Shown piece by piece: positions 1-54,739 of a DNA stretch of 64,000 bases; position 1 is the stretch's first letter; each line of letters starts with the position of its first letter. The stretch is from Blasia pusilla. Taxonomy: Eukaryota. Below the pieces are notes generated by a model. It saw only the letters and a program-made list of their open reading frames with translations. It ran no database searches and was not told the DNA's origin. The DNA lies in NCBI GenBank assembly GCA_050084515.1, contig CM114271.1, forward strand, positions 30,380,001 through 30,444,000. The letters run 5' to 3'. Both the position numbers and the translations under genes were made by a program.

Positions 1-2479
1 CATCACACTCTAGTGCAAACTTCTTGCTCGACGCGGTTACACATGCTCAGTGGCTAAGCGTCGAAGCTCCTCAATCAAGCCCCAAAGCGACACCTCTCCT
101 CCTTGGACTGATACGGCTACTATGACACTCCTCTCCATAGAAATGTCAAGAACAGGAGTATCCTCTGCGTGGACATGTCCCTCAATCAAATCACTAGGCC
201 AAGTGATGGCACTGCTAAATGCTGCTAAGGTCGCCATCTCTCCACGCCGTCGCTCGATCATTGCACCTGTGAATTGAATGGGTGATGACTTAAGGCGCCC
301 ATCACCTGACTGCCATCCTGGTCTGTAGGACGCTGACTATTCCCAATAATCAAGGGAAAACCCCATCGGGTATAAATATTGCTCCACCAACCAAGACGTC
401 GTAGGACTCTGCATCAGTCATTATTGCCTTGGCTTGCACCACGGACTGATTTGTAGGATGTCCCTGGCGAATCCTCACTATGACCTCCTGTCGGGTGATA
501 AATTGTGTGGTACTTGCTCCACCCAAGGATGTCTCTATCTGGAATGGATAACGCTCCACATTGGCTCTCCTCAAGCCTAATCCTCTTAATGACGCTTTCC
601 CCAACATCATGGGTTGTGCTCTTTAATCCAACAAGAGGCAGTGCGGACTAAAAGCTCTACCTCATGGACTCATCAACTGGAAGACCTCTCCCCGGTTATC
701 TAGCAAAAAAACACCAGGAGAAGCCATGGCACGCTCTATCGCGGGTCTAGCGGGCATTTCCGTCATCCTAGTAGTCGCAGCCTGCCATGAATCTTACGTG
801 GATAGTCCAAGCATCAGCTCTAAGGGCAGGTCCATCACCTCCTCTGCAATCACCTATGAACGTGATGCAAGAACTCCAACTCCACGCTCATATAGCCTAG
901 CGGCCAGCCTCGGTGGACGTACCTCCCAACGTCATAACATCGGAAGCAGAAAATAAAGGAGCTCGGTACACAATGGTGGTCGCCCCCAACAACGTGCTCG
1001 ACACATGCCCCTCCTGAGCATCAGCAATAGGAGTCGTCGCACTCGCTTCTCTCATCGCCCTCCATGCCTGCACACCAACAACATCACCAACTCTCGAGGA
1101 ACTCTGATAAGGACCCATCAATGGGGTTCTCATCGCCTAGGACAACGTGAAAGACTAAGGAAGCCTAGTCTGTTACTTGGCTTTCCCTCGCTATGGATCC
1201 AACTCTGCGGCTGCTCCATGCATCACAACTGCATTGGCCTCCATTTGGGCAACTACGCACATCTAACCAAGATCCTCTATATCTCTGGATGCTCCATATG
1301 ATGTCGATGCCACGGATCTGGCATCGGGTAACCTCAATTCCATAGCGGCAATCTGCTCCTCTAGATGCTGTATCCGAGTAGCCATCCCAGCCTCATGCCG
1401 AGCGTCTCCCTCAACACGTCTAGGTGGTGGGACTCTACCTCCTCCATGGGCAGATCCACCACCCTGTCGGGCAACTCCAGCTCCTTGTCCCCCAACGGGA
1501 CCACCTGTTGGACTATCTCTAGGCACACGTGGATCGGCTACTCGCTCTGGTGCCCTCTCTGGCCCTCGGTCCGGACGTAACTCAGGGTGTAAACTAAAAC
1601 ACGTGGCACATGTGTGACCATATCTCTGAAAATAGTCACACTGATAACCTCTTGGTGCATGTTGTGCGTATATATATCGCTACACAACATACATCGTTGG
1701 TCACATCTATACCACACAACATCGATCTTCTCCCCACACGGGTAGATCCAGACATGTATAAAAATTAACTCATACATATACATGGAGATCACACAACAAA
1801 AATAAAGAGTAGTAAAAACGGCACACTCGGCCTAAAACTCCACTCCTCAATCTACATCGGCATATCGAGCCTCGTCCACCCTACGTTATCAAGGAATCCG
1901 GACGCTAGCACCCTAGTCCTATCTCACACACATACAAGAGAGGTCCTCCAACGGCCCAACATAAGAAAGATGCCTTAGGAAAGCCATCTTCCTCTCTTAT
2001 ATAGGGTTGGGCTCTTCCTCTACAAATATCCATCCCCTTGGTAACGTGTACGCACAGGTTACGAGGGGCGGGTGACCTAGTCAACAAGTCACCCGGTTGT
2101 GAAAGACCTAAACAGGAAAGTTGTCAGAAACAATATTTTTGACACAATGGACCTATCCTCAACCTCATCTGATAGAGTGGGACAAAGTTACACTCAAGAT
2201 AGTCCGCTGGCTCCTACGTCCTATCCACGATAGATCTCGGCCTATTGGCTCCTTAGATGTGATAGTTGTCCTGCGTATACATATCGCTACACAACATACA
2301 TCGTTGGTCACATCTACACCACACAACACTGATCTTCCCCACATACGGGTAGATCCAGACATGTACATAAATCAACTCATACATATATATGGAGATCACA
2401 CAACCGCCCCCCTAGTTGGCACTTGGATTCCCCTAACTCCAGATAGAAAATATCACATCTCTTTGACATGACCTACTAC

Positions 2480-3890
2480 CCTGTACACATCTCGGACACA
2501 TCCATCGTCTCGTGGGAAGTACATCAGGAGGGGGATTCAGACATAAAATATGCCACCCTCAAGAACAACCATCACATACCAACATGGTGGCTGCATCCCT
2601 CTCAGATCCGCACAACATACACCTCAAGCCTGCATGTACCACCGCCAAGCTCGAATCCACTGTCTCATCTACGTTTGGAAGATGACATGGTGCACAATTG
2701 TGCACATGATCCTTCCAAACCATACCAACCCGTCCCTCCAACATGAGGACTCCGGTCGGTAATACCTTGCGCCCACGTAGGATCGTGTGCCCTGCAGTGA
2801 CATCTAGCGTCGTGGGTGCCGCCTGCTATAAATACACGTAATCTCCTAATCCCTGGACGATAACCTCCTCCACGAATGGTTGCATACCTCAATGTACTAA
2901 GCACACGATCTAGAAATACATAAGTTGTTCCTTCGCTTGCCTTGTCCGGTAGTGCCACCAACTCTATCCACTTGGAGAAATGCTCCACCATGACCAACAC
3001 GTACTTATGATGATGCCCCGTCAATGACAAAGGTCCCGCAAAGTCTAAATTCCACTGATAATCTAAACCCATAATCGGCAAAGGATGTAACTGCGGAGTG
3101 GAAGCATTGAAGGATGCTCGCACTGTGTCACATACCATACATCTGGCCACAAACTGTTGTACGCGAGTATGCATGCCGCGCCACCAATAGTGAATCTAGA
3201 GTAAGCTATAAGTATGCTTCACTCCAAAATATCCCAACTCCTCATGGGCATGTCGCACTACACGTGCTCCTTGGGAAGGATGAGGTACCACTCGTATCCT
3301 ACCATCTCTCCATACCCGCAAAATGTGAGTCTCCTCCCACCTGAACCTCATGGCTCTCTGTAGGATCCGATCCCACTCCCTAGCACTCATTGTGCTTGCT
3401 ATGACGCCAATGCGCAAGAACTCCACAACCTCCACGTCGTCATGGATATCACGACCACGTGTTGCCTCCTCACTGACATCCGTATCCAAAGACTCATCAT
3501 CCAACCCCACCACTGGAGTCATCACCTGCAACTGACCTACAATAGTCAACCAACAAAGATAAGCAGATGCATGCCAACCGGGCACCATCTCCTCATCATT
3601 TTCTCCGTGCCATCGAGCTCCTGTGTTGTCGCTCTGACTCGGACATGGGTTACAACTAAACCAATCCGCATCGTGGTTCAGCCAACCTGGCCTGTGAACG
3701 ACCTCAAACTCATACTCCTGTAGTAATAGAGCCTACCCAGCAAGCTTTCTCGTAAGCTTGTCGGACTCCATCAACCACCTCAACGGCTGATGATCAGTGA
3801 TAAGTGTGAAAGGGTTGCCAAATAAATAGCACCTGAAATGTGCCACGGCCCACAGTGCAGCCAAGCACTCTCCCTCGTAGGAGGTGTACT
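2480..3890 (-). pseudogene. E1 RNase H C-terminus, DDE integrase and C-terminal PHD finger (frameshifted)
   Basis: SYEGECLAALWAVAHFRCYLFG/TDHQPL (RH); HAHEELGYFG...CMVC (HHCC); LDFAGPL...VMVEHFSKW (integrase core); CMLCG...MLVCDGC (PHD). Confidence 0.88.
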
Positions 3891-4974
3891 TCACCTCTGC
3901 AATGTCCTCTGTGGCTCTTGAGCAATCAGAGGCGCTCGTGGTCCTCTCCCATGCTGTGTGCAGTCTCTTTGCCTATGGGCCCCTCCACATGTCCAACAAG
4001 ACAACATCGATCCCTGTTGGGCAACATATGTAGGTATGGGTCGTTGCCTCATAGGCTCACGGTACCCCGCCTGCTCTCTCGACACACTCGCCCGCTCCGG
4101 TGGTACTGGTGCTCGCTGTGGCACTTGTGGGGTCATCGTCGCTTGTGGACCAGTCAACTCTCGAGAAAATCCATCGGTCACTACGTGCTCCTCACTCATG
4201 TTAAGCTCAATACGTTCAGACAACTTAAAGACCACCTTCAATGTGGGCTTCGCTGTGTGAATCAACACCGTATCTTCGACTCTCCTCCGTAGTTCTCGGT
4301 CCAGAATCCTGTACCAATACTAGACTGATTGCGCCTCAATCACTCCATACGTAGCAATGATGAGCCTCCTCAGGTGCATGAATGCCTCTCACAATCTCAC
4401 TCGATCGTCGTTGAAAATCTTGTAGACTCTTCAGCTTGTCGGTGCGTACGCCCTGGTAGCTCTTCCCCAACTGTCAGAAGAACTCCACTATGGGACTAAA
4501 GTTGGGTGGCCCTCTACCACCAGAGGTCTCTGCCACATTGCCAGTCTCACTGCCCTCCTCTCCATCTAGTCTCCGGGCTGATGGTGTGGGTCTCTCTCCT
4601 CTCACGATCCCATCATATGCCTCGCGACCACTAGTGGACACATACCCTGGAGCCCAATACATCCTCCAGGCATGAATCTCTACTGAATATAGTGATCGAA
4701 ACTCCATGTAGTCATCCATTGGAGGACTCTCCAAGTGCTGGAACAACCCCTTCCATGCCATGAAAGGGTTGAATCGTATCGGGGTCCGTATCTCCTGGAA
4801 GTCGCACCACGTGTCAAACTTCTGGATAAAATCATCTAAGTTGATGGTGCCCACTGCACCTGAGGAACAACACATGCCCCGATGACCCATGTCGTCCATC
4901 TCTTGCCAAGTGATACTGCCTCCGTTTGATATCTCGTCACCAGACCCCATGTCTAGTGATGACGATCCAGCCAC
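3891..4974 (-). pseudogene. E1 gag (degenerate) with CCHC zinc knuckle
   Basis: ORFs 4474..4974 and 3891..4268 contain CWTCGGAHRQRDC and are nearly identical to the gag at 51276-52200. Confidence 0.8.
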
Positions 4975-7900
4975 GGATGGATGTCGAGGTAGCTCCTCAC
5001 TCGTAACCTCTCAGTATCTCAATCCACTCCGTGTCACACCACTACTACTGCTCGCACTACCCCGTTCTTCCGAACCGTGGAAGAATGCCGTGATGACAAC
5101 CCTGTCTCACCTGCTCAAGCACTCAGACTCACCAAGAGTCTCCTACACTCCTCACTAGCTCACCTATTCTAACGTCAATCCCGTGATGACACACTTGGCC
5201 TCACGCACACTCAACACTCGGGCTCACCATAAGCCTCCCAACTGACTCACCTAACCTAGCGACACTCTTGGATCATACATGCGACCCCTACTCGGCAACC
5301 ACCGTATATCCACCACATGGTACACATGAAAAGAGTCTACACTTGTCATCATCACTACAGCCACCTAGCACCAGCTACTACCTGATACCCAACACTCTCA
5401 ATCACACACGAGAAGTGCGGAAAAAGGGACTCGAATGGGTAACCTAATCATTCCCATCAACCTACTGCACCGTTAACATCCCCTCCTCCATGTAATATGA
5501 TGAGGTAAGGGATGGCCCCGTGGCCGACTCCGCGCCCCATCCGCCTCCGCCTAAAATATGCCCTAGGTGCCTATGACCTAACCAAACCTAGCTGACCTCC
5601 TCAAGGCGACTGCAACTCCTACATGCTCTTTCCTTACACACCCGCTTGCATACACTCGACGCCACACTGCATGCTACACTTGGCTGTTGTCCCCCGTCAA
5701 TCTGCAACAAAGAAATCTGCAAAAAATGGACAGCGCTTTCGCGCACAGCCTTCTGAACACAAAATGACCAACAAAAAATGCCAACCAACGTCTTCAGGGC
5801 TTCCTACCAATGCAACTCGCTTGCCTACCTGTAAACAACAAATTCCCACCAGCCCCTTGACATCTTTCTCATGTAAAAATAAAGAGTAGTAAAAATGGCA
5901 CACCCGGCCTAAAACTCCACTCCTCAATCTACATCGGTATATCAAGCCTCATCCACCCTACGCTATCAAGGAATCCAGACGCTAGCACCCTAGTCCTATC
6001 TCACACATATACAAGAGAGGTCCTCCAACGGCCCAACACGAGAAAGATGCCTTAGGAAAGCCATCTTCCTCTCTTATATAGGGTTGGGCTCTTCCCCTAC
6101 AAATATCCATCCCCTTGGTAACGTGTGCGCACAGGTTACGAGGGGCGGGTGACCTGGTCAACAAGTCACCCGGCTCTGAAAGGCCTAAACAGGAAAGTTG
6201 TCAGAAACAATGTTTCTGACACAATGGACCTATCCTCAACCTCATTCGACAGAGTGGAACAAAGTTACACTCAAGATAGTCCCCTGGCTCCTATGCCCTA
6301 TCCACGATAGATCTCGGCCTATTAACTACTCAGATGTGACATGCAGCACCATCTCCTCCGCCACGCTGAGGCACACGTCCATGACCCTAATGAGTGCAAT
6401 CGCGCTCATGATGGGCTCTACCACATGACCAAAAAGTAATCGTATGCCGCTGCTGCTAAGCCGCATATGAAAGCGCAGGTCTCTATGGCACGGCCTCCCG
6501 ATATCCTCCTTGAGCTCGTGGTGCCACAGTCAACCTATCTCCGAGTCCACGTTGCTGCACAGGTGGTGAAGACTATCATGTCAGCTCTCGCCCAAAACCC
6601 ATGGCGGCTACGCTCTCCTCCGCCATGTTGCGCTCAATATTCTCGGCGGTCCTAAAAACATCTCTCAACGTAGGGGAGGTGTTCATAAGAAGCACCCCCT
6701 CCCGCACTCATGTCCGCAGGGTCCGGTCCAGCATCACGTACCATGAGTGGATAGCTTGAGCCTCTGTCACCCCCTGAGTGACGTTCATCAACCGGCGCAA
6801 GCGAGTGTAAGCCTCAGGCAAACTCTTACCCGGGCGCCTCTGGAAGTCATGGATGTTCTGCAACTTCTCCGTCCGTACCCCCTGGTAGCTCGCCCTCAAC
6901 TCAACGAAGAACTCAACCACGGGGTTGAACTTGGGACGAACCCGACTAGATGGTGGAGCTTCTCCAGTGTGAGTGACCCCTCCTAAAACATCACTGGTGG
7001 AAGAGGAAGTAGCCTCTCTTGACTCCTCCTCCTCATCTGGGAACGGCTCCGTCCATGACACACACTGTGGGTCATAGTAGAGTCGCCATGCCTCAATCTC
7101 TTGGGCATATCCAAATCTCGCGAGTAATCCATCAATCACTCAAACTAAACATGCGGCACTCAATCTACACTCTCTCACTAAGACGTGTGTTGTGCGGAAA
7201 CAAGCAGCGTGGTGCGGAAAATCAACTGATCTATCGTCTTATCGACAAACCATCCTCAACCCTGGACATCCCACACAAGTCTATGTCCCCTAAACCCATA
7301 CATCATCGATTCTCTCAACATTAGCATAAAACCCAATATCCCAAATAACTTCCCAATACTCGGAAATCCTTCACACGTGCAGGGTAAGAAACCAGAATGG
7401 GTAAGTTGACAAGAATGTCGATGTCGCTCCTCGGCAACTGCAAATCTCGACCCCAACTTGATCGTGAAGACAACTCCTCCAATCAGCAAGTCGTACTCCT
7501 CTTGTACTAACGCTGCTCAAACCTCCTCAATGTGCGGTGTAGGTCCAACGGTCTGGTGCGGCACTAGCGGCACGGAACGGCTACAAACAGTACGTCACTT
7601 GGGAATGGGGTACGGCACTCGGCGGCATACCCTCCTCAATCAGCAATTCACAAGCTCCGCTCCTTAGTAAAGGAGCGGCTCCGCGATCGAGATGGTGCGG
7701 TGCGGCCACGATTGGCATGGCGCGGCAATCGGCAGCGCGTTGTGGCTATGGGCGTCACTTCAAGATACTCGATCGTCGTCAAGCGGCTTCCAATCATAAC
7801 ATGGTAGCATGAAATGAAAACTCAAACACCATAACCCGAGGTCACCTACCATCACTGATTGATGATGAAACTACGATGACGGTGGTGGCCAAAATAAAGT

Positions 7901-8799
7901 ACGTGGTGGCGGCGCAAGTCAGAGAATCAACGGTCGTTGTGGAAGACCTTCCACTCCGTAATAGCGGCAATGGCAACCAAGGGTGGACAACGCTCGATGG
8001 TGGACCATGGACCATTCACGGTGACGATTGACCGTTGATGATGATGGTTGACCGTCGATAGTGACTATGACGGCGACAGCCGCCGTCGGCACGGCGGGTG
8101 GTTTAGGGTTTGAACAATTTAACCCTAAAAATTACCTAGCAATGGCAGTTTTGCAAGATTAACCATAACTTCTTGCTTACAACTCCAAATTATGCACTGT
8201 CTATTGCACAACATGCACAACTTCATGACCTATGACGACATCATAAATTGTTTTCAATCAGGAATTCTTGTAAAAATTGACGGGGACTGTCGTAAAGCCC
8301 AACGTCTCTTTCTCCTACACAAAATTTGGCAGCACTTCCGCGCTAATTTCTCCCCAAAAAAAGTAAGACCTATGAGAACACAAATCAGCAAGCTACATGG
8401 TGCTCTCGAGAGCACTGGCATGAAGCAATCCTTCCCCATACTCAATTCCTATCGAAAATTGGCCAGCGCTTCCGCGTGCCAATCTCCCGTACAAAAAATC
8501 AGCAAAACAAAATAGCAAACTCGCACGGCTCTTGCTCCGGTGAGCACTCCCATGAGCCATGAAGTGGGGAACACGGTCCCCCAACCATGAAGCTCCCCCA
8601 TGAAGCTCTCTCACTCACTCATTCTTTCTTTATAGAATAAGATCCAATCTCTCTCACAACACCATAGTTCTCACATGTCTCTCTCAATGTCAAACCAAAC
8701 CCACTCTCCTAATGAGAGGCTTGGGTTACACTCATAAGGCAACGGACCATAGCTCCGCCGCCTCATGCCAAGAGGTTCAAAAAATAGAGAATAAGATCT

Positions 8800-8803
<4 letters not shown>

Positions 8804-8888
<85 letters not shown>
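8804..8888. repeat. (CT)n microsatellite inside the A repeat of E0
   Basis: Pure CT run; the paralogous copy at ~29745 has only a short GA run. Confidence 0.95.
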
Positions 8889-8890
<2 letters not shown>

Positions 8891-10289
8891 TGAGGTTTAC
8901 CCCTCCCCTCTATCATGACCATACATATTATGTCGTAGAGTATAGTGTGCTAGTAGAGGTCATACCTTATGTAGGGCCGCAGTGTCTAGGTAGAGATGCG
9001 ATTTCATACATAGGGTTGGGGTTACTCAGTTGAGGGTGAGTTTTCTAGTAGGGCCCGCTCTTAGGTTGGAGGATATAAGATGGAGTGCACTCAAAGAACA
9101 GTCAATTCTTTGAGTTGAGCCTGTTGCGTTGGGAGTTAGCCTTGGTAGTGAGTAGAGCTCTTGGCTATGGTGTTTCCGCAAGCTTCGACCTAGATTCTCC
9201 CATCGTGGAGTGGGATTGTATGTGATTCTACACGTGTTTTATGATAGTAGGTCTTTCACAAATTTCACTCAAAGAACTGGAGTCGATCGATGGTAGCTTC
9301 GATTGTGGATCAGTAGGATCTTGTTAGGGCTGATTTTGTACTCGGCCGTGGATGTTCGTGGCTTGTGGCCTATGTTGGAGGTTTCAATCTGGTGTGTGAT
9401 TGGTTGGGAAAGAAGCGCCTTGTTGAGAGCTTTGCAATGTGCTTTAGATCGCCGGATTTCGTCAAGGGAGTTGGAAGTTATCAAGGATTGAAGATTCTGG
9501 TTCGTGTTTGACGGTTTTCTGATGCGGAGAGCTTGGAGTGCGGAAGCTCTGTTGAAGTTCATCCAGATCGGGTGAGAGGTTCCTGTTGCTTCTTGTATTG
9601 TGATCTCATGTGAAGCTATCTGCTTGAGTGTGTGGAGCGTTGCGGATTTCTGCGTGCATGGCGGGCGGAAGCGCCGGCGGATTTGCGATCTCGGAGGTGT
9701 ATGGACAGCAAGTTTGTCTGATTTTTAGCTCGGAGTACAGAGCTTGGTTGTAGCTGATTTTTTGTGGAGAGATAGCTATGGTGGTCAATTGAATTTTGGT
9801 TGAAATAGATTCAATTTTGGTCAAGGATTTGTGAAGTAATTGGTGATCAAAATTTTGTGGACTAGCTCAAGGTCTAGCTATGGTGGACTGCGGATCGGAG
9901 GGGCTGGTTGGTTTGTGACTCGTTCATTGTTGGAGACGCCTATCCCATTGGGGGCACCCTGGGTGGGCCTCTCTCCATAGTGAAGCATGGCGAAGCGTGG
10001 CGAACGGGGCGAGACTTTTTGGAGGGTAATGTTTATGCTATGGATTCTCCAATGCATGAGGAGGTAGAGGAGGTCCCTATTTCTGCAGCAGTGGCATCCT
10101 CATCGTTGGATGTGCCACTTTGGAGTTCAGGCGGTGCACAACGGCAAGAGGCTGATTGCCTAGTGCAGGAGGCTGGGTGTGAGGCTGTTATACCTCACGA
10201 GGAAGAGGAGGCCCCACGGCGGACTCCTACTTCTGGTCCACTTGGGTTATCCCCTTTGGATACTACACCCATTGTATGGCAGTATCCGC

Positions 10290-11260
10290 CGGAGGGCATT
10301 TGTGTGTTAGATCTCTTTGGTGGGATTAGCACTGGTTTGGCTACAGTGTTGCAGGCCGGTATTCTTGTGCGGAGATACGTGTATGTGGAGCGAGATGAGA
10401 CGGCCCAGAGAGTCTCATCCCGACATATCGGTCAGTTGATGCGGAGATATCCTGAGTTGTTGCCGCCATTAGCTATTCGTGGGTACCAGCGTGCTTTGCC
10501 GTCACACATTGCATTGTTAGGGGCGCAGGACCTTGAGAGGGTTGGTCTTGTGGATTTGGTGATTGTTGAATGGCCATGTCAGGGTCATACACGTGCTGGT
10601 CGTGGTGAGGGATTACACGACCCTAGGTCTCGATTGTTTTGGGAGATGTTACGGGTGTTACGACATCTTCAAGTTCATCAGGCACGTGCTCTAGCTTACA
10701 TTCTGGAGAATGTTCCATTGTTGGGTGACACTCGGACCCAGATGATGGCGAGTGTTCATGAGGTGCGGTCTTGGATTGGACCAACGGTGTTGTTGGATGC
10801 AGCGCGAGTTGGCTCACGTGCACATCGTCCACGCTTGTGGTGGACAAACTTGTTGCCTAGATAGGTTCTACGTCGAGCATATGATGTAGTGCAGCGGGAT
10901 CCTTGCCTTACAGTAGATAGTATCTTGGATACTGGGCGACTTTCTCATGTGGTGAGGGTTATTGATCGGTCACCCATGGCGGTGGTAAACCGTGTGGGCC
11001 AGCCTAGGATGGCACTACCCACATTTGTGAGTTTTCCCTCGTCACATGCATACAGGGAAGGTGGTCCCGGGCTTGTATGGGATTCTCATGTACGACAGTT
11101 GGTGGAGCCTAACGCTGATGAGAGACAGCGTGCGATGGGATTTGCTACTGGTGTGACAGCGGTTGCTTCCATTTCTAAGGCTTCACGACGTCATATGTTG
11201 GGTTAGGCCATGGACCTGAATTGTTTGACTTGGATTTTGAGTCTTGGTATGGCCGAGCAG
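10290..11260 (+). pseudogene. DNMT3-like C5 cytosine DNA methyltransferase domain within the E2 pol region
   Basis: Motif I VLDLFGGIST; motif IV DLVIVEWPCQG; motif VI ILENV; motif VIII AHRPRLWWTNL; motifs IX/X ERQRAMGF...RRHMLG*AMDL. In-frame TAG stops at 10862 and 11204. Confidence 0.9.
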
Positions 11261-11497
11261 CGTCGACTTTGGACTATGTATGTGGGTCTTCCACCCCTTG
11301 TAATGAGCTCGATGGCTACCGGGACGGTAGAGGCATCGGTTGGGGGCGAGGAGAGTAGTATTTTGCATCCTTGGAGTAAATGAGATGTAATGGTTGGGCA
11401 TGTGAAGTTGGTTGCTCATGCTGGTGGTGGAGTTATTTGCTCAGATGATGGTGTAGCTAAGGGTGTACCATCTTGTGAGGGGGTTGCGTAGTAGCCA

Positions 11498-12846
11498 ATG
11501 GCATCGTCCTCTCCCTCTAGTGTGCCAGTAGAGGAGACTTGGGAGCCATTACTTAGGCCCAAGCTTACGGGAGGTGAGAAACGATGCTTCACACAGTTCC
11601 TACGTGCTTATAGGAGTTGTTTTGCCTTTAGCATGAAAGAGTTGGGTTCTCTGGTTGGACCCGGTATACGGATTCATTTGGCTAGTGATACGCCAATCTT
11701 CCGTCGTCCCCACCGATATAGTGATATGGAGAGGGACCTGATTCAGAGTAGGACGTTGGACCTTTTGGAGGCTGGATTAGTGGAGTTGTCGGCAGGAAAG
11801 TGTAAGTTCTTCCATGAGGATGTTGAGTACTTGGGTCATGTGATTTATCCAGGTGGTTTGGGAGTTCAGCAAGCAAAGATGGAGGCTATTGCCCTTATTC
11901 CGTGTCCGGTAGATGTGAGTAGAGTTCGGGCATTCATGGGATTGGCGAACTACTATCGAAGGTATGTGAAGGGATTTAGTGCTATGGCAAAGCCTTTGAA
12001 CCAATTGCTGAAATCAGATCAAGAGTGGCAGTGGGGAGATGATCAGGAGAGAGCTTTTGTGGAGCTTAAGGCCCAATTGGTGGCGGCGTCTATCTTGAGG
12101 AGACCTATCAGAGGGTGCCAATTTCAGTTACAGATTGATTGGAGTAGGTTGGGACCTGGAGCGGTGTTGACACAACATGATGATGAGCACATGGAGTTTG
12201 TGGTGGCCTATGCAAGTCGTTCGAATAATGCAGCGGAGTCGCGCTATAGTTCATATGAGGGAGAGTGCTTGGCAGTAGTGTGGGCTGTGGCACACTTTAG
12301 GTGTTACTTGTTTGGTACAGAGATGTGGATGAGAGTGTGTTCTCATCGGGCAGAGCTCTTTCGGAGAGTTATGCCAACAGCCTTTGAGAATCTTGCCATT
12401 GCTCAACACAGGGATACGTTGCGATATGCAACCATTCGGGATGGAGGTTATCGACCATCTATTCATAGGTTCCATGTGGGGAACTATGTCTATTTGCAGC
12501 AGATTGCACCGACAACGTTGGATGTGACGGCAGGCCGCACTATTTTACGAGTGCGCGAGGTGTTAGCTTCTGGAGTTCTCATATTGGAGGGTCGTGATGG
12601 AGTTATTTGGAAGGACCATGTGCGTAATGGTGCGTCATGTCATCTTCCAAATGTGGATGGTACTGTTGACCCAAGCTTAGCCATGATACGTGCTAGCTTG
12701 AGGTGCATGTTGTGTGGAGTGCTAGCTAACGCTTGGCCCGTATGTTGGTGTGTGATCGGTGTTCTAGGGGTTGGCACATGATGTGTTTGACTCCACGTAT
12801 GGATTTTGTTCCTACTGGAAGGTGGGTTTGTCCTCGATGTACTTAG
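11498..12846 (+). pseudogene. E2 partial RT, RNase H, integrase C-terminus and PHD finger (two internal deletions)
   Basis: PIFRRP...LLEAGLVE fused directly to KCKFF...EYLGH (RT core lost); VRAFMGLANYYRR; VAYASRS...SYEGECLAVVWAV; integrase core missing. PHD CMLC...CDRC...WHMMC...WVCPRC* at 12704-12846 (one frameshift). Confidence 0.88.
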
Positions 12847-15800
12847 GAGGGGTAGATGACTTGATCTTTGCTTGATATGGATTACAAATGTGCGACTAAC
12901 GATGGGGCAACCTAGCACCCGGCCTTCTCATTCGTGCACCCAAGAAGGTGTATAGCATGTAGTAGATGTATAGGGCTACAGGAGTTAGAGGACCTAAACT
13001 TGATTAGGGGGCGAGTTGTGGTACACTTGTGTTTGTGGATGCTCTTGTCTATGTTATGTATGTATGTGAGTATGGTATGTCAGCGATGTATGTTGTATGA
13101 CGATGTGGATTCGCACGACAAGTGTCATGACCACACAGATTATGTCGTAGAGTATAGTGTGCTAGTAGAGGCCATACCTTATATAGGGCCCCAGTGTCTA
13201 GGTAGAGATGCGATTTCATACATAGGGTTGGGGTTTACTCAGTTGAGGGTGAGTTTTCCAGTAGGGCCCGCTCTTAGGTTGGAGGATATAAGGTGGAGTG
13301 CACTCAAAGAACAGTCAGTTCTTTGAGTTGAGCCTGTTGCGTTGGGAGTTAGCCTTGGTAGTGAGTAGAGCTCTTGGCTATGGTGTTTCCCGCAAGCTTC
13401 GACCTAGATTCTCCCATCGTGTAGTGGGTTTGGCTCGATTGTATGTGATTCTATACGTGTTTTATGACAATAGGTCTTTCACGGATTTCACTTGTGGTAC
13501 ACTTGTGTTTGTGGATGCTCTCGTCTATGTTATGTATGTATGTGAGTATGGTATATCAACGATGTATGTTGTATGACGATGTGGATTCGCACGACACCTC
13601 TCCCAAGCTCTCTCCATGGTAACCTATGCTCCCAAGTCACCTCCTTGGCTCTTGACCTGATGTAGGACAATCAAAGGCCATTTACTAAAATAGAAAGTCA
13701 ATCATATACTCAAAATGATACTCACCTAAAATAGTAAGTTCTTTAATATGGCTCCAGATAAGCCAAAACAAAGGGGAAACCTACTCTCTCAGGTTTCCCT
13801 GGGCCTCAGTAGGTCATCCTTAACCTCTTGAGTCTGTCCTCCACTACTCGCGAAGGCGCTCTACTAGATCTCACTGATCTATCCTAAAAGACGTGACATC
13901 CATGTAACGAAGTTACAAAAGGATGCAAAGAGGATATTTCCTTAATCCGTATGTGGCACGGACACTGACTAGTAGCTACTAATGCATAGCCTATGTTGGT
14001 GCACAAGACCAATCATGGCGAATTTTTTTAATTTTTTTGTTACCCACGTTACAAAAAACTTTTCATGCTGCCTATTGCCTTGTTTTAATTTAGGAGATGT
14101 TTGTAAATCAAGAAACTGCTCTCCCACAATATTATACTAGTGTATAGCCTATGTACGAGACCCATCATGATTAAAAAAGTAAACAAAAAAATCATTCTTA
14201 CACCACTAGCATGTGGCAATTAAAAAAAAATGTGTTTACAAATTAAGAGAACTATTCCAACAAAAAAATATCTACACTAATATTTTAGAACCATGTCTTG
14301 TACTGCTTGCTTGAGCAATTGACACTTGGATATTTTGACCAATGCCAACCTGCCACATGTCCCATATATCTTAGGGTTACTCAATAGTCATTTTTGGGGA
14401 TAGTTCAAGTTAGTGGGTCACATTTTAAAGATTTTAGAGTAATAGGGCGTCTCATATAGAGGGATGTAAGTCTTGCAATGTCTTTTGGGTGTTTGACTAT
14501 AAAACATGGACAACTTCCGTCTATGCCAAGGGATATTTGATTTTATTAGATGTCGTACTATGCATATTGCATGCCCACCTCTTCCACCACCTCGCATTCT
14601 AGCCATGGACACGACATCCATGATTATGACCTAAAGTTTGAGACGTCCTAATGATGGGTAATCTACTCATGATTGCTTGTGGCATCTACTAGTAAATTAG
14701 TATAGCAAACTAAGATTAGAATCTACCAAAATTTTCTTTATATATGCATTCTACAAAATAGGCACCAGGAATAATAAGGAATCTTAGACTGTGTTGTGAG
14801 TGTCAAACATCAAGATCCCTTTTTCTTCTTTCTATTTTTTGCATTTGTAGTGGAGGGGAGGTGGTCCTTCCTATTTACTTCGGGGCAAGTGAAACATTAC
14901 AACATCTTACAAATTAAAAAACTCTTTGACCTAAGAATGGGCCACATTGAGACCTAAGAGACTCACCCTAATCTTATGGAATCTCCCGTAGCCTACTTAG
15001 AACCATCTATTTCATTGACCGAGGTCGAGGTTAAACACTCCCCCTCCCAATTGCTCACACATGCCAATTTAATTGAGAGTAATCCATATTATAGTGGGTG
15101 ATCTTACTTGCATAATAAAACAAAATATCAACAAGATACTATTTTGTCACTTAAGGTGGCATGTTGGTAGGAAAATGATATCATTGGAGGAAGTAATAAG
15201 ATATCCAGTAATGGAGAACTAATGAACGGGAGGAGTGGGGTTCAAGAAAAACCTCAACTACTCAATATTTTTTTAAATAATTTTGTGGAAAACCTTCTTT
15301 TTAAACTTAACATGGGCATGTTAACAAGTTAAGTCGAGAGGGGCTTAAACGTACTAGGAAAAGAAAAAGAAGGGGAAACAATTTCTCCCTCGGCAACCCA
15401 ACTAGACCTTTGTGTCGAAAGGTAATTTTAGGGATGCTCGGGCGTCCTAGAGAGGAAGAAGAAAGTAAATTTTAATAGAAATTGGGACGCAAAACTCATC
15501 GAGATACAAAGGAGGGGGGTGTAGAGAGGCAAAAAAACCCACGGGCATATATCGACCTCGGAGAAACAGAAAAATATTTCTCCTTTAACGACCAAAATCA
15601 CCAACAATAAACAACAACAACACTTATAGAATTATGGCTGTTACTAAGCGGACCTCTAGCATTTAACGCCAATGGCCACTTCGTAGTAGCCATAGCTCGT
15701 TACCCATCGGAAGTACAAAAGAGGGGGACTCAAAGAGTCAAAACCTGAAGGCCACAACAAGACCAGAAAAGGAAGAAAGGGCATTCCCCCAGACGAAACT

Positions 15801-28849: not shown

Positions 28850-29841
28850 AATGGTATGGTTTGGAAAGATCTTGTGCATAACTATGCGTCATGTCACCTT
28901 CCCAACATTGACGGTATAATTCATCCGAGCTTAGAAATAGTTTGTGTATGCTTGAGATATGTATTGTGTGGTTTTTCCCTTGGTGCAACCATTGTGCTTG
29001 TGTGTGATGGATATTCGAGAGGGTGGCATATGGCATGTTTAACGTTACCTCTCACTAGGATTCCTCAGGGACGATGGATGTGTCCCACATGTACATAGAG
29101 TAGATACTAGGTAGTTATGCATTCCAACTTGTATTTGTGATATGGATGACAAGAAGACGATTAATGATGGGGCCACATAAGCACCTGACCTTTTGGCTCT
29201 TCGTGTCCTAGAGATGTATGTCATAGTAGGTAGGAATAGATGGTTAATATTTGGAGTTAGAGGGACCTAATCACGAGCTAGGGGGGAAATTGGAGATATT
29301 TTGGTACTCTATTGTCTCGATGACATTGTTTGGATGTCATAAGTTGAGCATGGGATCCTGTGTGTTTATGTATTTATTTGGTAACAATGATGTATATTGA
29401 ATAGCAATGTGTATGCGCACAATCACTGTCACATATTTTAGAATATATCGATAAGTCTATAGTAGAGTGTCTTCAAGGATAGTGGAGGATAGTCTCAAGA
29501 GTTTGAGGATGACCTGTTGAGGCCACAAGTAACGTGAGAGAGCAGGTTTCCCCTTCATTTCGGCTCATTTGGAGTCATGTACAGAAACTTACTATTTAGA
29601 GTAAGTCACCATTTTGAGTGTAGCTGACTTCCCAATTTGGAAAGTGGCCCTTGACCTCCTACAGCAGGTCAAGAGCCAAGGAGGTGACCTACGAGCATAT
29701 CTTACCGGGGAGAGAGTTTGAGAGAGGGAAGGGGACATACCAAAGGAGAGAGAGCTTTGTAACTCATTCTCTCTTTGTTGAACCTCTTGGCATGAGGCGG
29801 TGGTGCTATGGTTCTTCTTGTATGTGGATTTGGTTTGACAT
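28850..29841 (+). mobile_element. 3' remnant E3 of the same Gypsy group: integrase C-terminus, PHD, PPT, B1, start of A2
   Basis: [19 protein letters not shown]...[13 protein letters not shown]...WMCPTCT*; PPT AGGGGGGAAA at ~29280; B ~29290-29425; A from 29427 (TGTCACAT) is homologous to the 5' end of E0. Confidence 0.8.
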
Positions 29842-31085
29842 GAACACTCAAAACTTCATCTATCACCCATGCTTGAACTATAGACCCCTCGTGACTTCAC
29901 TCCACTATGCCAATCAATCTTGAAGGAGTAAGTATGATTTGGCAACGTAACTACAAGCTCTTGATTTTCCTTGTTCATAAACTATTTTGGTCCTCCAACA
30001 ATATCACTTTGCTCAAAATTGAAGGTTCACTTTTGATCTTGGTCAAGAATTTTGGGCTTTTGTGGTGGTAACTCGTACATTTTCAATGTTTTGCTACTGG
30101 AAACGCTAACTCTGATTTTTATATGGAATTTCTATACAAGGAAATGCTATATTTTAGGTTAATATTTCCAGGTGTTTTTACTAGTTAAAATTGTAAGATC
30201 TCCTCGAATATTCGTATGGGTTGGCTCAACAACCCAACAGAACTAAATCCCCAAACTCATAGTTGATTTCTTAAATCAATTTTAAATGATCTTAGTGGTT
30301 AAGCAATCCTATTGGCTAAGAGGGTTGGGTGTCAAGACAAGAGGTGTTAGAAAATGAAAAGGGCACTCAATAATAATATAGAAGATAAATGATTTATAGA
30401 GATGCATGATTGTTATGAATCATTTATTAGGTATTTATTTTCCAAGATACTTGTGCCCATATGGTTTTCATGAAAATATTCACTAATCAAATATTCAAGT
30501 GAATTTGTAATAAAACTTTTTCCATCACTTATAGGAATCACTAATGGAGTGTAATGCCATAAATTAATGGATGTGTGTTAACTTATTATCTGTCTAATTT
30601 GGTAAATATATGTATTATCATTGTAGAATGGGTTTTCAATTTTTCAAACATTCCTCTCATACATGCCCTTCTCATGTGAAGAAGATGTTGGTGTATGGTG
30701 TAGAAAGGAAAACTAGGTTTAAAAAATTAGAGTAAAGTAAAGTAACCAAAAAAAGTTGAATTTTTGAAGATAGAGAAAAATATTAGGTTCCAAATAAGGA
30801 GGGATCCTAGGGTACTAGAATTTAGGGCTTAGGGTTTTACAAGGTTGTACAAAAATGGACTTGTCCATACGTCAAAAAATCCAACCCTGTGAAACACGCC
30901 CAGGGCCTTAATAAAGGATTAATTCAACAACTACTAAGCTGTTACGCGGCCTTCTTCTTCATTTGGACTTAACCAATATGCCCCGAATGAGGATTTGAAA
31001 TTACAGCAGAATACCCCAAATACTATTGGAAATATCGCTTATGCGGGCTACAAGGCCCGTAAAATCTGAATAAGTTATCATGGAC

Positions 31086-45599: not shown

Positions 45600-46170
45600 A
45601 GCTGCACAGTGACATAGTCTGGAGTCTACAGTCTGGAGTCTGGAGTTCGAGCAACTTTGGAAGTTCGCGCATTCGGGGAATGGACCCCCTACAGTGGCAG
45701 CAGCAAGCCCTCGGAGTCTCGGACGAGTCGGACGGTCTGGGAGTCTGCACTCTGGAGTCTGGAGTTCGAACATCGAGCAACTTCGGAACTTCGCGACTTC
45801 GCGCCTTCGGGGATTCGGGGAATAGACCAACTCTAGATGCAGCTGCAAGCCCTCGGAGTCTCGGACGAGTCGGACGGTCTAGGAGTCTGCACTCTGGAGT
45901 CTGGAGTTCGAACTTCGAGCAACTTCGGAACTTCGCGACTTCGCGCCTTCGGGGATTCGGGGAATGGACCAGCTCTAGATGCTTGTTTGCAAGCCCTGAG
46001 TCTCGCATAAGTCGGACGGTCCGGGAGTCCAGACGGAGTCCGGATGTGGAGTTCGGGCAAATTCGGAAGCTCGCGCCTTCGGGGATTCGGGGAATGGAGC
46101 CCCTGCAGCGGCAGCAGCAAACCCTCGGAGTCTCGGACGAGTCGGACGCAGGGTCTGGGAGTCTCGGACC
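45600..46170. repeat. GC-rich ~140-bp tandem repeat (about 4 copies) inside the hAT
   Basis: CCCTCGGAGTCTCGGACGAGTCGGACG and TTCGGGGAATGGA recur at roughly 130-145-bp spacing. Confidence 0.85.
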
Positions 46171-48581: not shown

Positions 48582-51500
48582 GTTTTCAACATGACTCCCA
48601 AAAATTAGCCCAAAATTGAAATTTTCACTTAAGATCCTTTCATACTACGTCCCTACAAGAAACTCCGCCCCTTATTTCCTAAGACCAATCCCATGGCATA
48701 CACTTGTCTTTCTCTAGTCTTCTGATTAGCTAGTCTGTAAATATATAGTTCGCTTTGGTGTGTCTTACCAAAGTTTATCCTCCTTAGACCAATGATTATG
48801 ACTTGCTTCTTCGGTCCCTATATATTAGCATAGAGTTAGCTATTTGCGACGTTCATGTAATCTTGTTCTATCCATTTATATCTACGATATGAGCTAGTAT
48901 CGTATCTATATACTAGTTCTTCTTACTCATTGGTATTTCCACCATCCCAAAGGTGGGAAGTGGAGCCACGAGGAGATCTAGGTACAATTGAGATTTTTTT
49001 TGTTGGGATTTGAGTCTTTTTCAAAGTGAGTTAAATAGTGTCATACTTCAAAAATGGTACTTCACTTGGTTTCCCATTGAAGAAGCCATAGCAACTAGGT
49101 TGCAACATTGTAGAACATTAGGTTTAGGTATAATAACTCGGAATCCATAGAGTTATTATACCTAAACTCTACCATTGGAGAATATGTTGCCCAATTCATT
49201 TGATCTACTGAGATATAGTTTCATAGATATCCCTCAAGCACCAAGTTTACTTGTTCTGCTTAACCCAAAGTGTTCAATTGGTGACCTAAACATAAGAGCA
49301 GATCTGTTTCGAGTGCTTCAACAAACATATCTTGAACTTAGAGACAAACTTGATGTCATGATCATATATTAGTTCATTCAATAAGCCCGAATATATATCT
49401 CAAAATATGGTCGAGATACTTCAATGATTTAATTACATTTTGAGTCAGAATGAGAATTCCCATTTTAGAAAATCAATCTACTTCCATTATTAAGATTGAA
49501 TTAAATCCTTTCAACTCAAATCCCCATGATGAAATCTATGTCACATCTGAGTAGCCGATAGGCTGAGATCTATCGTGGATAGGGCGTAGGAGCCAACGGA
49601 CTATGTTGAGTGTAACTTTGTCCCACGGTATTGGATGAGGTTGAGGATAGATCCATTGTGTCAGGAATGTCCTTTCTGATAACTTTCATGTTGAGGTCTT
49701 TTACAGTCGGGTGACTTGTTGACCAGGTCACCCGCCCCTGGTAACCTGTGCGCGCAGGTTACCAAGGGGAGGGCTATTTTTAGGCTCTTCCCAACCCTAT
49801 ATAAGAGAGGAAGATGGCTTTCCTGAGCCATCTTTCTCATGTTGGGCCGTTGGAGCACCTCCCTTGTATGTGTGTGAGATAGGACTAGGGTGCTAGCGTC
49901 CGGATTCCTTGATAGCACAAGGTGGACGAGGATCAATATGCCAATGTAGATTGAGGAGTGGAGTTTTAGGCCGGGTGTGCCATTTTTACTACTCTTTATT
50001 TTTACATGAGAAAGATGTCAGGGGGCTGGTGGGAATTCATTTTTTGCAGGTAGGCAAGCGAGTTGCCTTGGTTGGGAGCCCGTGGAGACATTGGTTGGCG
50101 TCGTATTTGTCATTTTTTTGTGCTCGGAAGGCCGTGGGCGGAAGCGTTGTCCGTTTTTTCTCAGATTTTGTTGGTGCACAGGGATTGGGGACAACGGCAG
50201 AGTGTAGTACGGAGTGGGCGTCGGGTGTACGCGAGTGAGTATCGAGAGAGAGAAGAAAAGAGAGTTAGGGCTTGCAGCCGCCGGGGGCACTGACGGGCGT
50301 TTAGGTCGGCGGGCGGCGACGGCGCGCCCCCTCCCCATTTATTGCTTCCTCCCCAAAAGTTGGGGAGGCATATAGGGTGCGGGCCAGCCCCCGCATTTAG
50401 GGCCCAAGGGGCCCGCATAGGGCCGCGGGCCAGGTTACTCCCCCCTCCAACGTGGTAGGACGGACGAGGTCGGTCCGGCGAACGTGGTAGGGCACGGACA
50501 GATGTGGTCAGTCGGCAGAGGTCGTTGAGAGTCCGGATGTGGTGGGGGTCATATTCACGTGGTCGGACAAGGCATACGTGGTTGGAGTGGAGCCCGACCA
50601 GGGTGAGTCAGGTTACATGCCGCGTGTGGGGATGGACGGAGATGTTTGCGTGACATGATGTTTTTGGGGCCCGACAGGGCGTTGCGAGAGTTGACGATGG
50701 AGGGGCAGTGCGCATGATGCCGACAGGTTGTCCGCATCTGTTGACGGGAGGATCGACGTGTTTGTCGAGGAGAGTGTTGTGTTGCGGAGATTGTCATATC
50801 ACGTGGAGGAGTGCATGTTGACGGTGCAGTAGGTTGGAGGGCGTGATCAGGTTACCCATTCGAGTCCCTTTTCCCGCACTTGTCGTATGTGATTGAGAGT
50901 GTTGGGTATCGGGTAGTAGCTGGTGCTTGGTGGGTGCAGTGATGGTGACGAGTGTAGATCTTGTTCATGTGTAGCACATTGGTGGATATACGGCGGTTGC
51001 CGAGTAGGGGTCGCGTGTATGACCCGAGAGAGTGTCGCTACGTTAGGTGAGTCAGTTGTGAGGCTCATGGTGAGCCCGAGTGTTGAGTGTGCGTGAGGCC
51101 GGGTATGTCATCACGGGATTGATGTAAGCATAGGTGAGATAGTGAGGAGTGTGGGAGACTCGCGGTAAGTCTGAGCCCTTGAGCGGGTGAGACAGGGTTT
51201 GTCATCACGGCGTTCTTCCAGGGTTCGGAAGAACGGGGTAGTGCGAGCAATAGTGGTGGTGTGACATAGAGTGGAGTGAGATACCGAGGGGTTACCAGTG
51301 AAGAGCTACCTCGACATCCATCCCTGGCTGGATCATCATCACTGGACATTGGGTCTGGTGACGAGATCGCAAACAGAGACAGTAGTACTTGGCAGGAGAT
51401 GGATGACATGGGCCATCGGGGCATGCGTCGTTTCTCGGGTGCAGTGGGCACCATCGACTTAGATGATTTTATCCAGGAGTTTGACACATGGTGCGACTTC

Positions 51501-52549
51501 CACGAGATACGGACCCTGACACAGTTCAACCCTTTCATGGCATGGAAGGGGCTGTTCCAGCACTTGGAGGGTCCTCCGATGGATGACTACATGGAGTTTT
51601 GATCACTATATTCACTAGAGATCGATGCCTGGAGGATGTATTGGGCTCCAGGATATGTGTCCACTAGTGGTCGCAAGGCATATGATGGGATTGTGAGAGG
51701 AGAGAGACCCACACCATCAGCCTGGAGACTAGATGGAGAGGAGGGCAGTGAGACACGCGATGTGGTAGAGACCTCTGGTGGTAGAGGGCCACCTAGCTTC
51801 AGCCCCACAGTGGAGTTCTTCCGATAGTTGGGGAAGAGCTACCGGGCATGCACCGACAAGTGAAGAGTCTCTGTGGATTTCGGTGACGATCGGATGAGAG
51901 TCTGAGAGAGGCATTCACACGCATGAGGAGGCTGATCATTGCTACGTTTGGAGTGACTGAGGCGCAGTCAGTCCAGTATTGGTACGGGACTCTGGATCGA
52001 GAACTACGGAGGAGAGTCCGAGATGCGGTGCTGATTCACACAATGAAGCCCACATTGAAGGTGGTCTTTGAGTTGTCTGAGCGTATTGAGCTTAACATGA
52101 GTGAGGAGCAGATAGTGACCGCTGGATTTTCTTGAGAGTCGACGGGTCCACGAGCGACGCTGACCCTAGAGGTGCCACAGCGAGCACCACTACCACGAGA
52201 CACTAGAAGAAATGGGTGGTTTTTATGACTAGTCTTTAAATGACTCAATGAAAGAATGACTCAAATTATGACTTAAATGGTTTAGTCATAACATTTAAGG
52301 TTCGTATAACTCACCTAGTCATCTCCTCATGACTAAAGTAGTTATCAATACCCTTTAGACATCACGAGTCATATTTGTTTCACTTGGGTAGTAATTATGA
52401 GTCGTAAAAAATGACTGACGTGTTTAAATGATTTAATGTTGCAATGTTACCGTGTTTCCTAATCATATTGGGATATAATTTCGTACCCATTTTTAAATTT
52501 TTATTCTTAGACACAAATATTTCTTTCTTTGTGTTCTTCTTTTCGATTT

Positions 52550-54100: not shown

Positions 54101-54641
54101 TGAGTTATATTTTTTAAATGCCCTGTGTCTTACAAACTATTTATTTGGAGACTCACATGACAACTCCCATCACATTTGTATGAATGGTCACGATGTGCAA
54201 AATACCCATGAGCAAAATGAGTCGGGTAACCTTCCATATTGTGTTGGAAATAGAAAGGAAGGATGTGGCATGTTACGAGAAGGAATGTTGATGTGGCATG
54301 GAAGGGAATGATGATGTGGCATGGAACGTTTAGGGTTCCTCTCGTTGTTTTGTCCCGAAGTGAGTGTGTGGCGGGAGAGAGTGAGTAGAGTGCAGAGTGT
54401 GGGACGTTCAGAGTTTCCTCCAGGCGGGAGTGGAGAGTTCGGAGGTCGGGAGTGGGAAGTTTGAAGATCAGGGGAGTGGGGAGGTCGAAGTGGAGAGGTC
54501 GAGATCAAGTGGGATGTTCACAGATAAGGATGATGGTCGGTGTTTGAGTCCTTTCACGACAAGTGTGCAATCTTATGAACAACAAATTCTGAAGACTCGT
54601 TTTGCAAATGAGAGTTGCAAAGTGCAACATTCTTGGCCGCG

Positions 54642-54643
<2 letters not shown>

Positions 54644-54736: not shown

Positions 54737-54739
<3 letters not shown>

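Follow-up and report, generated by a model that had tools for sequence, protein, structure and literature searches.

The window analysed here, 64,000 nucleotides of Blasia pusilla DNA (assembly GCA_050084515.1, contig CM114271.1, positions 30,380,001 to 30,444,000 of the forward strand), contains retrotransposons with split direct repeats in the order A1-internal-B1-NN-A2·B2, among them the elements that we call E2 and E1. In these elements the primer sites for reverse transcription bound one permutation of the sequence, and the termini flanked by target-site duplications (TSDs) bound another. The mismatch recurs in three families and dozens of copies, and it argues that the integration ends are made by cutting an internal palindrome, located where B1 meets A2. 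Whether the integrase cuts this attachment (att) palindrome, GACA-NN-TGTC, inside a permuted cDNA, with loss of the two spacer bases at integration, we regard as an evenly balanced question. Slightly below even, and hence tentative, is our confidence in the wider reading: that bryophytes harbor a lineage with a DDE integrase, perhaps of one kind with the Klebsormidium element KnitGypsy-Dnmt3, in which the provirus is obligatorily permuted and the integrase never uses the cDNA ends, opening instead an att palindrome encoded in the unique 3' region (U3). The copy counts given below were drawn from the 64-kb window, from public sequencing runs and from one metagenome scan.

In the textbook view, retrotransposons with long terminal repeats (LTRs) and also retroviruses insert a linear cDNA by its two ends, and circles are dead ends; as a side route in retroviruses, the cutting of a circle junction has been under debate since the 1980s. 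If the wider reading is correct, a natural element would have a cut of the circle-junction type as its regular way of integrating. This would also be an integrase-based parallel, reached by convergence, to the DIRS strategy. These abundant, transcribed elements would then be a natural test system for junction cleavage by integrases and for joined cDNA forms.

The B1/A2 joint and the integrated ends

In E2, the two copies of A delimited by repeat finding (8913-9269 and 13125-13492) are 91-96% identical in blocks, and those of B (13016-13120 and 13492-13596) are 97% identical; the features of all elements are collected in Table 1. At the boundary between B1 and A2, the plus strand from 13100 to 13135 reads GATTCGCACGACA-AG-TGTCATGACCACA, that is, CACGACA (13114-13120), AG (13121-13122) and TGTCATG (13123-13129). 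We placed the end of B1 at 13120 because B2 ends alike at 13596 and then diverges into the flank. On the left side, the terminus of E2 reads today TATCATG (8911-8917), and exact homology between A1 and A2 begins only at 8913. The spacer is read as 2 nt because A is taken to start with TGTCA, as it does in A2 of E2, in A1 of E1 (6341, minus strand), in E3 (49539), in E5 (29427) and in E6 (13898, minus strand). In E1, A is 95% identical over 300 nt and B 91% identical over 138 nt, and the joint on the minus strand, from 2273 to 2258, reads CGCAGGACA-AC-TATCACA, i.e. CAGGACA-AC-TATCACA. A third family, represented by E5, has the same spacing at 29411-29433 (GCGCACAATC-AC-TGTCACA). The joint letters that an earlier, sequence-only reading of the window had given for E1 and E2 were confirmed. 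Its description of the B1/A2 boundary also stands: the right end of the element is joined to its left end through a spacer of constant length, 2 nt, which the integrated ends lack, having 4-bp TSDs instead.

Using a 21-letter pattern from the conserved block at the end of B, we collected 83 metagenome loci; the B-end motif gave no match in the viral contigs. In these loci, the B end continues either as NN followed by TGTCATGACC, which corresponds to the internal joint, or as unrelated sequence, which corresponds to the right terminus. There were 31 joint instances (32 pattern matches minus the false positive L059), representing 24 unique copies, namely 23 clusters plus locus L056. The spacer was 2 nt long in all 31 instances, as it is in three window elements. 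Its letters in the 24 unique copies were GC (12 copies), AC (7), AT (4) and GT (1), the variants each being a transition away from GC, and we infer that a GC spacer would make the joint a perfect 10-bp palindrome, GACAGCTGTC. The CA at the end of B was kept in 21 of the 23 clusters, with TA in the other two, and the TG at the start of A was kept in 19, with TA in the other four; the joint of L056 has CA and CG. The frequent change of TG to TA fits deamination in a CAG/CTG context. Conservation of the spacer length and of the CA and TG dinucleotides, which the sequence-only reading had supposed, is therefore what the copies display.

The final 38 nt of B are shared between the three families, with 30/38 identical letters between E1 and E2, 27/38 between E1 and E5 and 26/38 between E2 and E5, which agrees with the earlier claim that about 40 nt at this end are conserved across three otherwise dissimilar families. 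Outside this block, E1 and E2 can hardly be aligned, either in B or anywhere in A. Exact matches to a 13-nt core of the B end number four in the window, in both B copies of E1 and of E2 (chance expectation in the window, 1.4 matches at two or fewer mismatches). For the conserved end of B in E2, a T-arm like that of a tRNA was ruled out, as E1 does not have it.

Regarding the integrated ends, both could be compared in eleven copies: E1, E2, one full-length metagenome copy, one copy of the form A-internal-B and seven solo A·B copies. A perfect 4-bp TSD flanks seven of them (TGCA, CCTC, CATA, AATA, AATC, TCCA and TGTT), a number that was reached in none of 20000 shuffled pairings. Two further copies have a TSD at three of the four letters, each one transition off. 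The termini of the elements read TGTC…GACA. The repeat into which E2 inserted has other copies, and their reads and contigs, with loose ends before 13597, give the empty site as ACCCCTCC followed directly by CCTCTCCC, with CCTC present once. Such a TSD pattern is what a DDE integrase leaves when it inserts with a 4-bp stagger, and not what a tyrosine recombinase leaves.

The coding regions contain the corresponding enzymes. Locus L037, a complete 11-kb metagenome copy with the layout of E1 and E2, matches the Pfam families Integrase_H2C2 (1.3e-13) and rve (1e-10) and has a C-terminal PHD finger; L052 matches RVT_1 (7e-31) and rve; E1 matches Integrase_H2C2 and rve weakly, below the Pfam cut-offs. 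E2 presents in one degenerate frame a C5 DNA methylase (PF00145, 4.4e-07), RT_RNaseH_2 (7e-27) and RT_RNaseH. Together with the 4-bp TSDs, the integrase domains of E1, L037 and L052 bear out the proposal of the sequence-only reading that an integrase is the integrating enzyme. We class E1, E2 and related elements as retrotransposons of the Ty3/gypsy type, with a reverse transcriptase (RT), RNase H, a DDE integrase and a C-terminal PHD finger. They share with this group the type of RT and RNase H, the DDE integrase, the TG…CA termini and the 4-bp TSD, but not the two identical LTRs around an internal region with provirus ends that coincide with the cDNA ends, since here the primer binding site (PBS) and the polypurine tract (PPT) bound B-NN-A and not the integrated ends. 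With DIRS, Ngaro and PAT elements they share the split direct repeats, A1…B1A2B2, but neither a tyrosine recombinase, for which 16 scanned open reading frames gave no match, nor the TSD-free, site-specific recombination, the TSDs found here being of varied sequence.

The terminal B ends of the metagenome loci comprise 79 instances, not deduplicated. Of these, 24 stand after a joint (B1-NN-A2·B2), 22 consist of PPT-B and then flank, as in the form A-internal-B, 14 belong to solo A·B copies, and 19 are ambiguous or lie at a contig end. Locus L038, of the A-internal-B form, and locus L053, of the full form, have the same flank, which aligns on both sides, so at least some of the short forms are B1×B2 deletions. 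Most simply, the A-internal-B and solo A·B copies are later deletions through B1×B2 and A1×A2 recombination.

Other rearranged copies were also seen. In L010, L033, L074, L021 and L040 the A end is followed by a PBS remnant nearly abutting B, the first three of these loci having the A end, then CTCAAAGAA(A/T)TGCTA and then B; these short derivatives may be non-autonomous mini-elements or internal deletions. In a subfamily comprising L030, L036 and L078, positions 1-337 of A2 are followed immediately by an inverted partial A, positions 178-1.

Primer sites, transcripts and the predicted cDNA

A G-rich tract, AGGGGGG(CGA), adjoins the start of B in 28 of the 31 joint-bearing copies, as well as in E1, E2 and E5. 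Among the other three copies, two run off the locus and one has a different sequence before B. In the metagenome family this PPT reads AGGGGGGCGA. At the other end of the internal region, the 10-14 nt adjoining A1 can pair with a stretch of A whose first letter lies 31-32 nt past a TATA box. Besides the pairings of E1, E2 and E3 given in Table 1, a complement is present in A for 11 nt in L052 and for 10 nt in L037. The complementary 10-mer of E2 was present in 4 of 5000 shuffles of A2. Between two sequence families the letters of the PBS and of its complement (anti-PBS) are wholly different, and both the pairing and the position are retained, which constitutes covariation. In sequence terms, this primer-site pattern is the signature of a putative self-primed reverse transcription.

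A PBS of the tRNA type (TGG… after A1) was looked for by eye and none was found. The PBS sequence occurs once more, as a direct copy, just upstream of the complement, with which it makes a hairpin near the TATA box (CTCAAAGAAC…GTTCTTTGAG in E2).

Where A2 meets B2, the sequence consists of the A end as it stands before the PBS and the B start as it stands after the PPT, and the length of this A·B joint is constant in 42 of 43 instances. Given a PBS that follows A1 and a PPT that precedes B1, the LTR generated by reverse transcription would be B-NN-A. The readings in which the LTR is A alone, or A·B, with ordinary reverse transcription, were rejected because a B2 after A2 together with no B after A1 is not producible from the primer sites.

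At the RNA level, depth was measured in two public RNA runs. The family is very abundant in the DNA contigs of organism A, and sense-strand RNA was present in both runs, with a depth of 80-130x over B1-NN-A2, about 22x in 13403-13563 and 2-7x beyond. According to this profile, the transcripts include the joint and mostly lack B2. A possible RNA 3' end at 13476 was given by only five molecules from one run. Two joints were found in RNA only: one leads from 12970 to 13063, skipping 92 nt across the PPT and the start of B, with TA..TG ends (10 and 7 reads), and the other leads from 13440 back 289 nt to 13152, inside A2 (3 and 4 reads). Both are probably expressed variant copies.

The proposed mechanism starts from a provirus of the form A1-PBS-internal-PPT-B1-NN-A2·B2. 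Transcription would start about 30 nt past the TATA box, within A1, and end near the end of A2, and with these limits both termini would be transcribed only from the B1-NN-A2 joint. Minus-strand synthesis would be self-primed, as in Tf1, at the site adjoining A1, and plus-strand synthesis would start from the G-rich tract adjoining B1. The expected cDNA would be (B-NN-A)-internal-(B-NN-A), in which the joint, lying in U3, would have been copied into both LTRs. Such a cDNA would end in B-start and A-end, whereas the integrated ends are A-start and B-end, so that the provirus would be a circular permutation of its cDNA.

In this scheme, the cDNA ends (A-end and B-start) would be precisely fused as A2·B2, and the ends of the provirus would come from the opening of the GACA-NN-TGTC palindrome of the 5' LTR. 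The integrase would cut 3' of CA on both strands with a 2-nt stagger, leaving CA-3'OH ends with 2-nt 5' overhangs, and ends cut in this way would be equivalent to 3'-processed retroviral ends. Strand transfer to the target with a 4-bp stagger would follow, and the overhangs, i.e. the spacer bases, would be lost. The cut might take place either after the cDNA ends have been joined, in a form resembling a 2-LTR circle, or before, in which case the element would insert first and its old ends would be joined later. The sequence-only reading had the joint serve as template for the regeneration of both ends; this part holds in the sense that the joint is located in U3, as delimited by the PBS and the PPT, and would be copied into both LTRs by reverse transcription. 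What that reading had overlooked is that the primer sites place the cDNA ends at B-start and A-end, that A2·B2 would be the true end-to-end joint of the cDNA, and that such a layout was already in print for Klebsormidium (PMC5890265).

Competing routes to the provirus

Several observations weigh against the opening of an internal palindrome by the integrase. No intermediate was observed, and there were no reads of free cDNA or of circles. Host end-joining of retroviral DNA is usually less uniform than the A·B joint with its 42 of 43 instances, and this uniformity hints at a templated or protected joining step. Conservation extends over about 38 nt on the B side and about 7 nt at the A start, a pattern for which integrase binding alone is insufficient. 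Three low-depth contigs of organism A have other letters at the B-to-A join; one of them fits a 2-nt spacer (AC) and two are off consensus. Besides, two of the eleven copies compared have no 4-bp TSD, one of them showing a 6-bp match instead. Regarding the short forms, their deletion origin is backed by one same-locus pair only, and the 22 PPT-B ends followed by flank could be primary products of the cutting of 1-LTR circles, rather than deletions. Finally, an A end precedes B at the joint in none of the 31 instances, so the form A·B-NN-A-internal-B was not seen among them, and a symmetrical 2-LTR circle cut at random should also yield proviruses of this form. The model thus needs an unexplained preference for the site of the 5' LTR, or a fast loss of the missing form. 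This is the main weakness of its circle version, and it favours either a directional step or a regeneration of the ends on the internal joint.

One could argue that the joint itself templates a linear cDNA running from A-start to B-end, with NN overhangs that are trimmed by ordinary 3' processing, and with no circle or internal cut. This corresponds to the second alternative of the sequence-only reading and is modelled on DIRS. We consider this route unlikely, although it deserves serious weight. It requires no added assumption for the missing A·B-NN-A-internal-B form, the spacer has the length of the dinucleotide trimmed by retroviral integrases, and the joint is the sole transcribed copy of both ends. 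Moreover, the passages of PMC7192593 on DIRS-1 describe its internal complementary region (ICR) as essential for retrotransposition. However, the PBS-like complement is placed after A1 and the G-tract before B1, neither of them beside NN, and nothing purine-rich or primer-like adjoins the spacer. Such a route also gives no account of what halts copying at NN, nor of the addition of B2 after A2 with a precise joint between A-end and B-start.

A single cut in a 1-LTR circle (internal-B-NN-A) would have A-internal-B as the primary provirus, and we find it rather improbable as the main route. The full copies, A1…B1-NN-A2·B2, would then be a minority arising from 2-LTR circles or multimers, and they alone would be able to replicate further. 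The 22 of 79 terminal B ends that consist of PPT-B and flank make this form common, and L052, 8.7 kb long and of the form A-internal-B, has a perfect TSD, TGTT. In contrast, L038 and L053, in which both forms occupy one locus, point to deletion, and A-internal-B copies without a 3' repeat of the R region could not found large families; the counts themselves come from old, non-deduplicated loci.

The possibility that these are tyrosine-recombinase elements of the DIRS/Ngaro/PAT type, in which a closed circle would recombine at the joint, with the spacer as the crossover region, is largely refuted, and we assign very little probability to it. Parts of the literature on these elements do define the Ngaro/PAT type by the layout A1-internal-B1A2-B2 (PMC7192593, PMC5890265) and describe DIRS junctions with a few extra bases (PMC7192593). 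But no match to the tyrosine recombinase (PF00589/Phage_integrase) was obtained in 16 open reading frames (ORFs) of E1, E2, L037 and L052, of at least 113 aa, on the sense strand and from degenerate copies, whereas rve and Integrase_H2C2 were found. The 4-bp TSDs and the TG…CA termini stand against it too, as do the RT and RNase H, which match RT_RNaseH_2 as in Ty3/gypsy. An origin of the layout from ordinary LTR elements that are nested by chance, inserted in tandem or misassembled, which might be suspected in a window that is a dense repeat nest with E2 itself inside another element, is refuted by the recurrence of the layout, since layout and 2-nt joint are found in three window families and in 24 unique copies, from independent metagenome contigs, with their own flanks and TSDs, and sense RNA reads lie over the joint region in two runs.

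Relation to known elements and other features of the window

The palindrome cut proposed here resembles the cleavage of 2-LTR circles by retroviral integrases, which are reported to cut the palindromic LTR-LTR junction in human immunodeficiency virus type 1 (PMC1905944) and in prototype foamy virus (PMC1180852). In the portions of these two papers that deal with the reaction, it likewise involves a DDE integrase and a restriction-like cut in a CA…TG palindrome, and regenerates processed ends. In retroviruses, however, the palindrome exists only after the cDNA ends have been joined, and its cutting is a side route. Here it is encoded in U3 and would be the sole route, and the joined cDNA ends (A·B) stay uncut.

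DIRS-1 also has a built-in circle junction, the ICR, which is essential, and extra bases at its junction are discussed in the same part of PMC7192593. As in E1 and E2, termini missing from the transcript are restored in DIRS-1, Ngaro and PAT elements from a copy of the end-to-end junction located inside the element (the ICR, or B1A2), which carries a few extra bases. In the account given there (PMC7192593), those elements differ in having a tyrosine recombinase, a proposed closed-circle integration, a junction trinucleotide left on both sides and no TSD from a staggered cut. The elements described here have a DDE integrase, TG…CA ends and 4-bp TSDs, and the spacer is lost. Regarding the primer sites, self-priming is known for Tf1/sushi and predicted for the plant Tcn1 clade, and what PMC6317226 says of them includes the lack of a tRNA-type PBS and a site after the 5' repeat that can pair with the predicted 5' end of the RNA made from the element itself; the LTRs of those elements are, unlike ours, ordinary (PMC6317226).

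The nearest description that we found is KnitGypsy-Dnmt3 of Klebsormidium nitens (de Mendoza et al. 2018, PMC5890265), for which the legend of Fig. 4c notes DIRS-type A-coding-B-A-B repeats together with Gypsy domains. It resembles E2 in both respects. Its pol includes a C5 methyltransferase of the Dnmt3 type, and E2 has a C5 methylase domain (PF00145) beside RT and RNase H. In its accessible part, PMC5890265 notes the layout only, with no analysis of the joint, the spacer, the TSDs, the PBS and PPT or the integration route. Our literature search for split-repeat DDE Gypsy elements and for Gypsy elements carrying a DNA methyltransferase (DNMT) found only this paper, PMC5890265, whose supplements may hold more. 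The host of KnitGypsy-Dnmt3 is a charophyte, whereas the hosts here appear, from the best protein matches, to be bryophytes, and the two are likened by layout and domains. The Chlamydomonas element TOC1 is said to have been described by Day et al. in 1988 with an 'unusual arrangement of LTRs'. It is likewise an element of the green lineage with split terminal repeats, and differs in being classed as a non-autonomous DIRS element in the section of PMC9940879 that treats it. Taken together, the element type is already known, and what appears to be new is the constant CA-NN-TG joint, the TSDs, the geometry of the primer sites, the permutation that they imply and the occurrence in bryophytes. LTR finders that expect two identical terminal repeats will misannotate such elements, and A·B solos may be taken as 'LTRs' and full copies as DIRS-like elements or fragments.

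The pol frame of E2 contains, in this order, a C5 DNA methyltransferase, an RT remnant, RNase H, a C-terminal remnant of the integrase and a PHD-like, Cys-rich tail. The C5 cytosine DNA methyltransferase domain lies at 9878-11206 (plus strand), upstream of the RT remnant, and the motifs DLFGG, PCQG and ENVP can be read by eye in its translation. Relatives of this ORF with 57-70% identity are hypothetical proteins of Marchantia polymorpha, and others are found in Calypogeia fissa and Sphagnum. Some of the bryophyte relatives carry RT and RNase H in one protein, and PF00145 is present in the Marchantia, Calypogeia and Sphagnum homologues, so Gypsy elements with a DNMT, reported for a charophyte, seem to occur in liverworts and mosses as well. 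No methyltransferase domain was matched in the scanned ORFs of E1, L037 and L052. A PHD finger ends pol after the integrase in L037 (PF00628, 5e-07; 2701-3333, minus strand) and in the window at about 12600-12781. Chromoviruses carry a chromodomain at the pol position held here by the PHD finger, which may be a chromatin-targeting module.

Table 1. Positions of the split-repeat elements and of their parts in the 64,000-nt window.
Feature	Position	Strand	Remark
E2 left TSD, CCTC	8907-8910	+	single CCTC in the empty-site consensus
E2 repeat A1	8911-9267	+	left terminus TATCATG, derived from TGTCATG
E2 A1 TATA box, TATAAG	9074-9079	+	
E2 A1 anti-PBS, ATTCTTTGAG	9105-9114	+	
E2 candidate self-priming PBS, CTCAAAGAAC	9268-9277	+	adjoins end of A1; pairs with GTTCTTTGAG at 13318-13327; one change in the A1 copy
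E2 degenerate pol frame	9878-12781	+	stops and internal deletions
E2 PPT, AGGGGGCGA	13006-13014	+	abuts start of B1; kept in E1, E5 and the metagenome family
E2 repeat B1	13015-13120	+	ends in CGACA; final 38 nt shared between families
E2 junction spacer, AG	13121-13122	+	2 nt
E2 repeat A2	13123-13490	+	starts with TGTCATG; sense RNA depth drops near its end
E2 repeat B2	13491-13596	+	right terminus CGACA
E2 right TSD, CCTC	13597-13600	+	
E2 conserved B-end blocks	13083-13120, 13559-13596		
E1 including TSDs	1656-6345	-	
E1 TSD, TGCA	6345-6342 and 1659-1656	-	
E1 repeat A1	6341-5875	-	
E1 PBS, ACATGAGAAAGATG	5874-5861	-	as in E3; pairs with 14 nt starting at 6049 (minus), one G·U
E1 integrase ORF	3195-2665	-	
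E1 PPT, AGGGGGGCG	2413-2405	-	
E1 repeat B1	2404-2267	-	
E1 spacer, AC	2266-2265	-	
E1 repeat A2	2264-1798	-	
E1 repeat B2	1797-1660	-	
E1 conserved B-end blocks	2304-2267, 1697-1660	-	
E3, 3'-truncated copy of the E1 family	49539-52196	+	A1 starts with TGTCACATCTG
E3 PBS, ACATGAGAAAGATG	50004-50017	+	perfect 14-nt complement (14/14) of CATCTTTCTCATGT at 49829-49842
E5, third family	29280-29433	+	
E5 PPT, AGGGGGGAAA	29280-29289	+	
E5 repeat B1	up to 29424	+	terminal CA decayed to TC
E5 conserved B-end block	29387-29424		
E5 spacer, AC	29425-29426	+	
E5 start of A2, TGTCACA	29427-29433	+	
E6, A1 of an E5-family element	13597-13898	-	starts with TGTCACG at 13898

Regarding its surroundings, E2 landed in reverse orientation inside the A repeat of E6, and the pieces of this host repeat lie at 8746-8910 and 13597-13898. 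An uninterrupted A related to that of E6 is present at 29427-30200. The window also contains tandem repeats at 52614-54138, 45645-46148 and 54762-55011, with periods of about 347 bp, 142 bp and 125 bp, and long (CT)n tracts at 8797-8890, near 54640-54740 and near 57070-57200. Finally, coding sequence resembling CCHC zinc knuckles is found at 1560-1655 (minus strand), by the right flank of E1, and at 60720-60830, upstream of the element labelled E4; these stretches are gag remnants of other nested retroelements.

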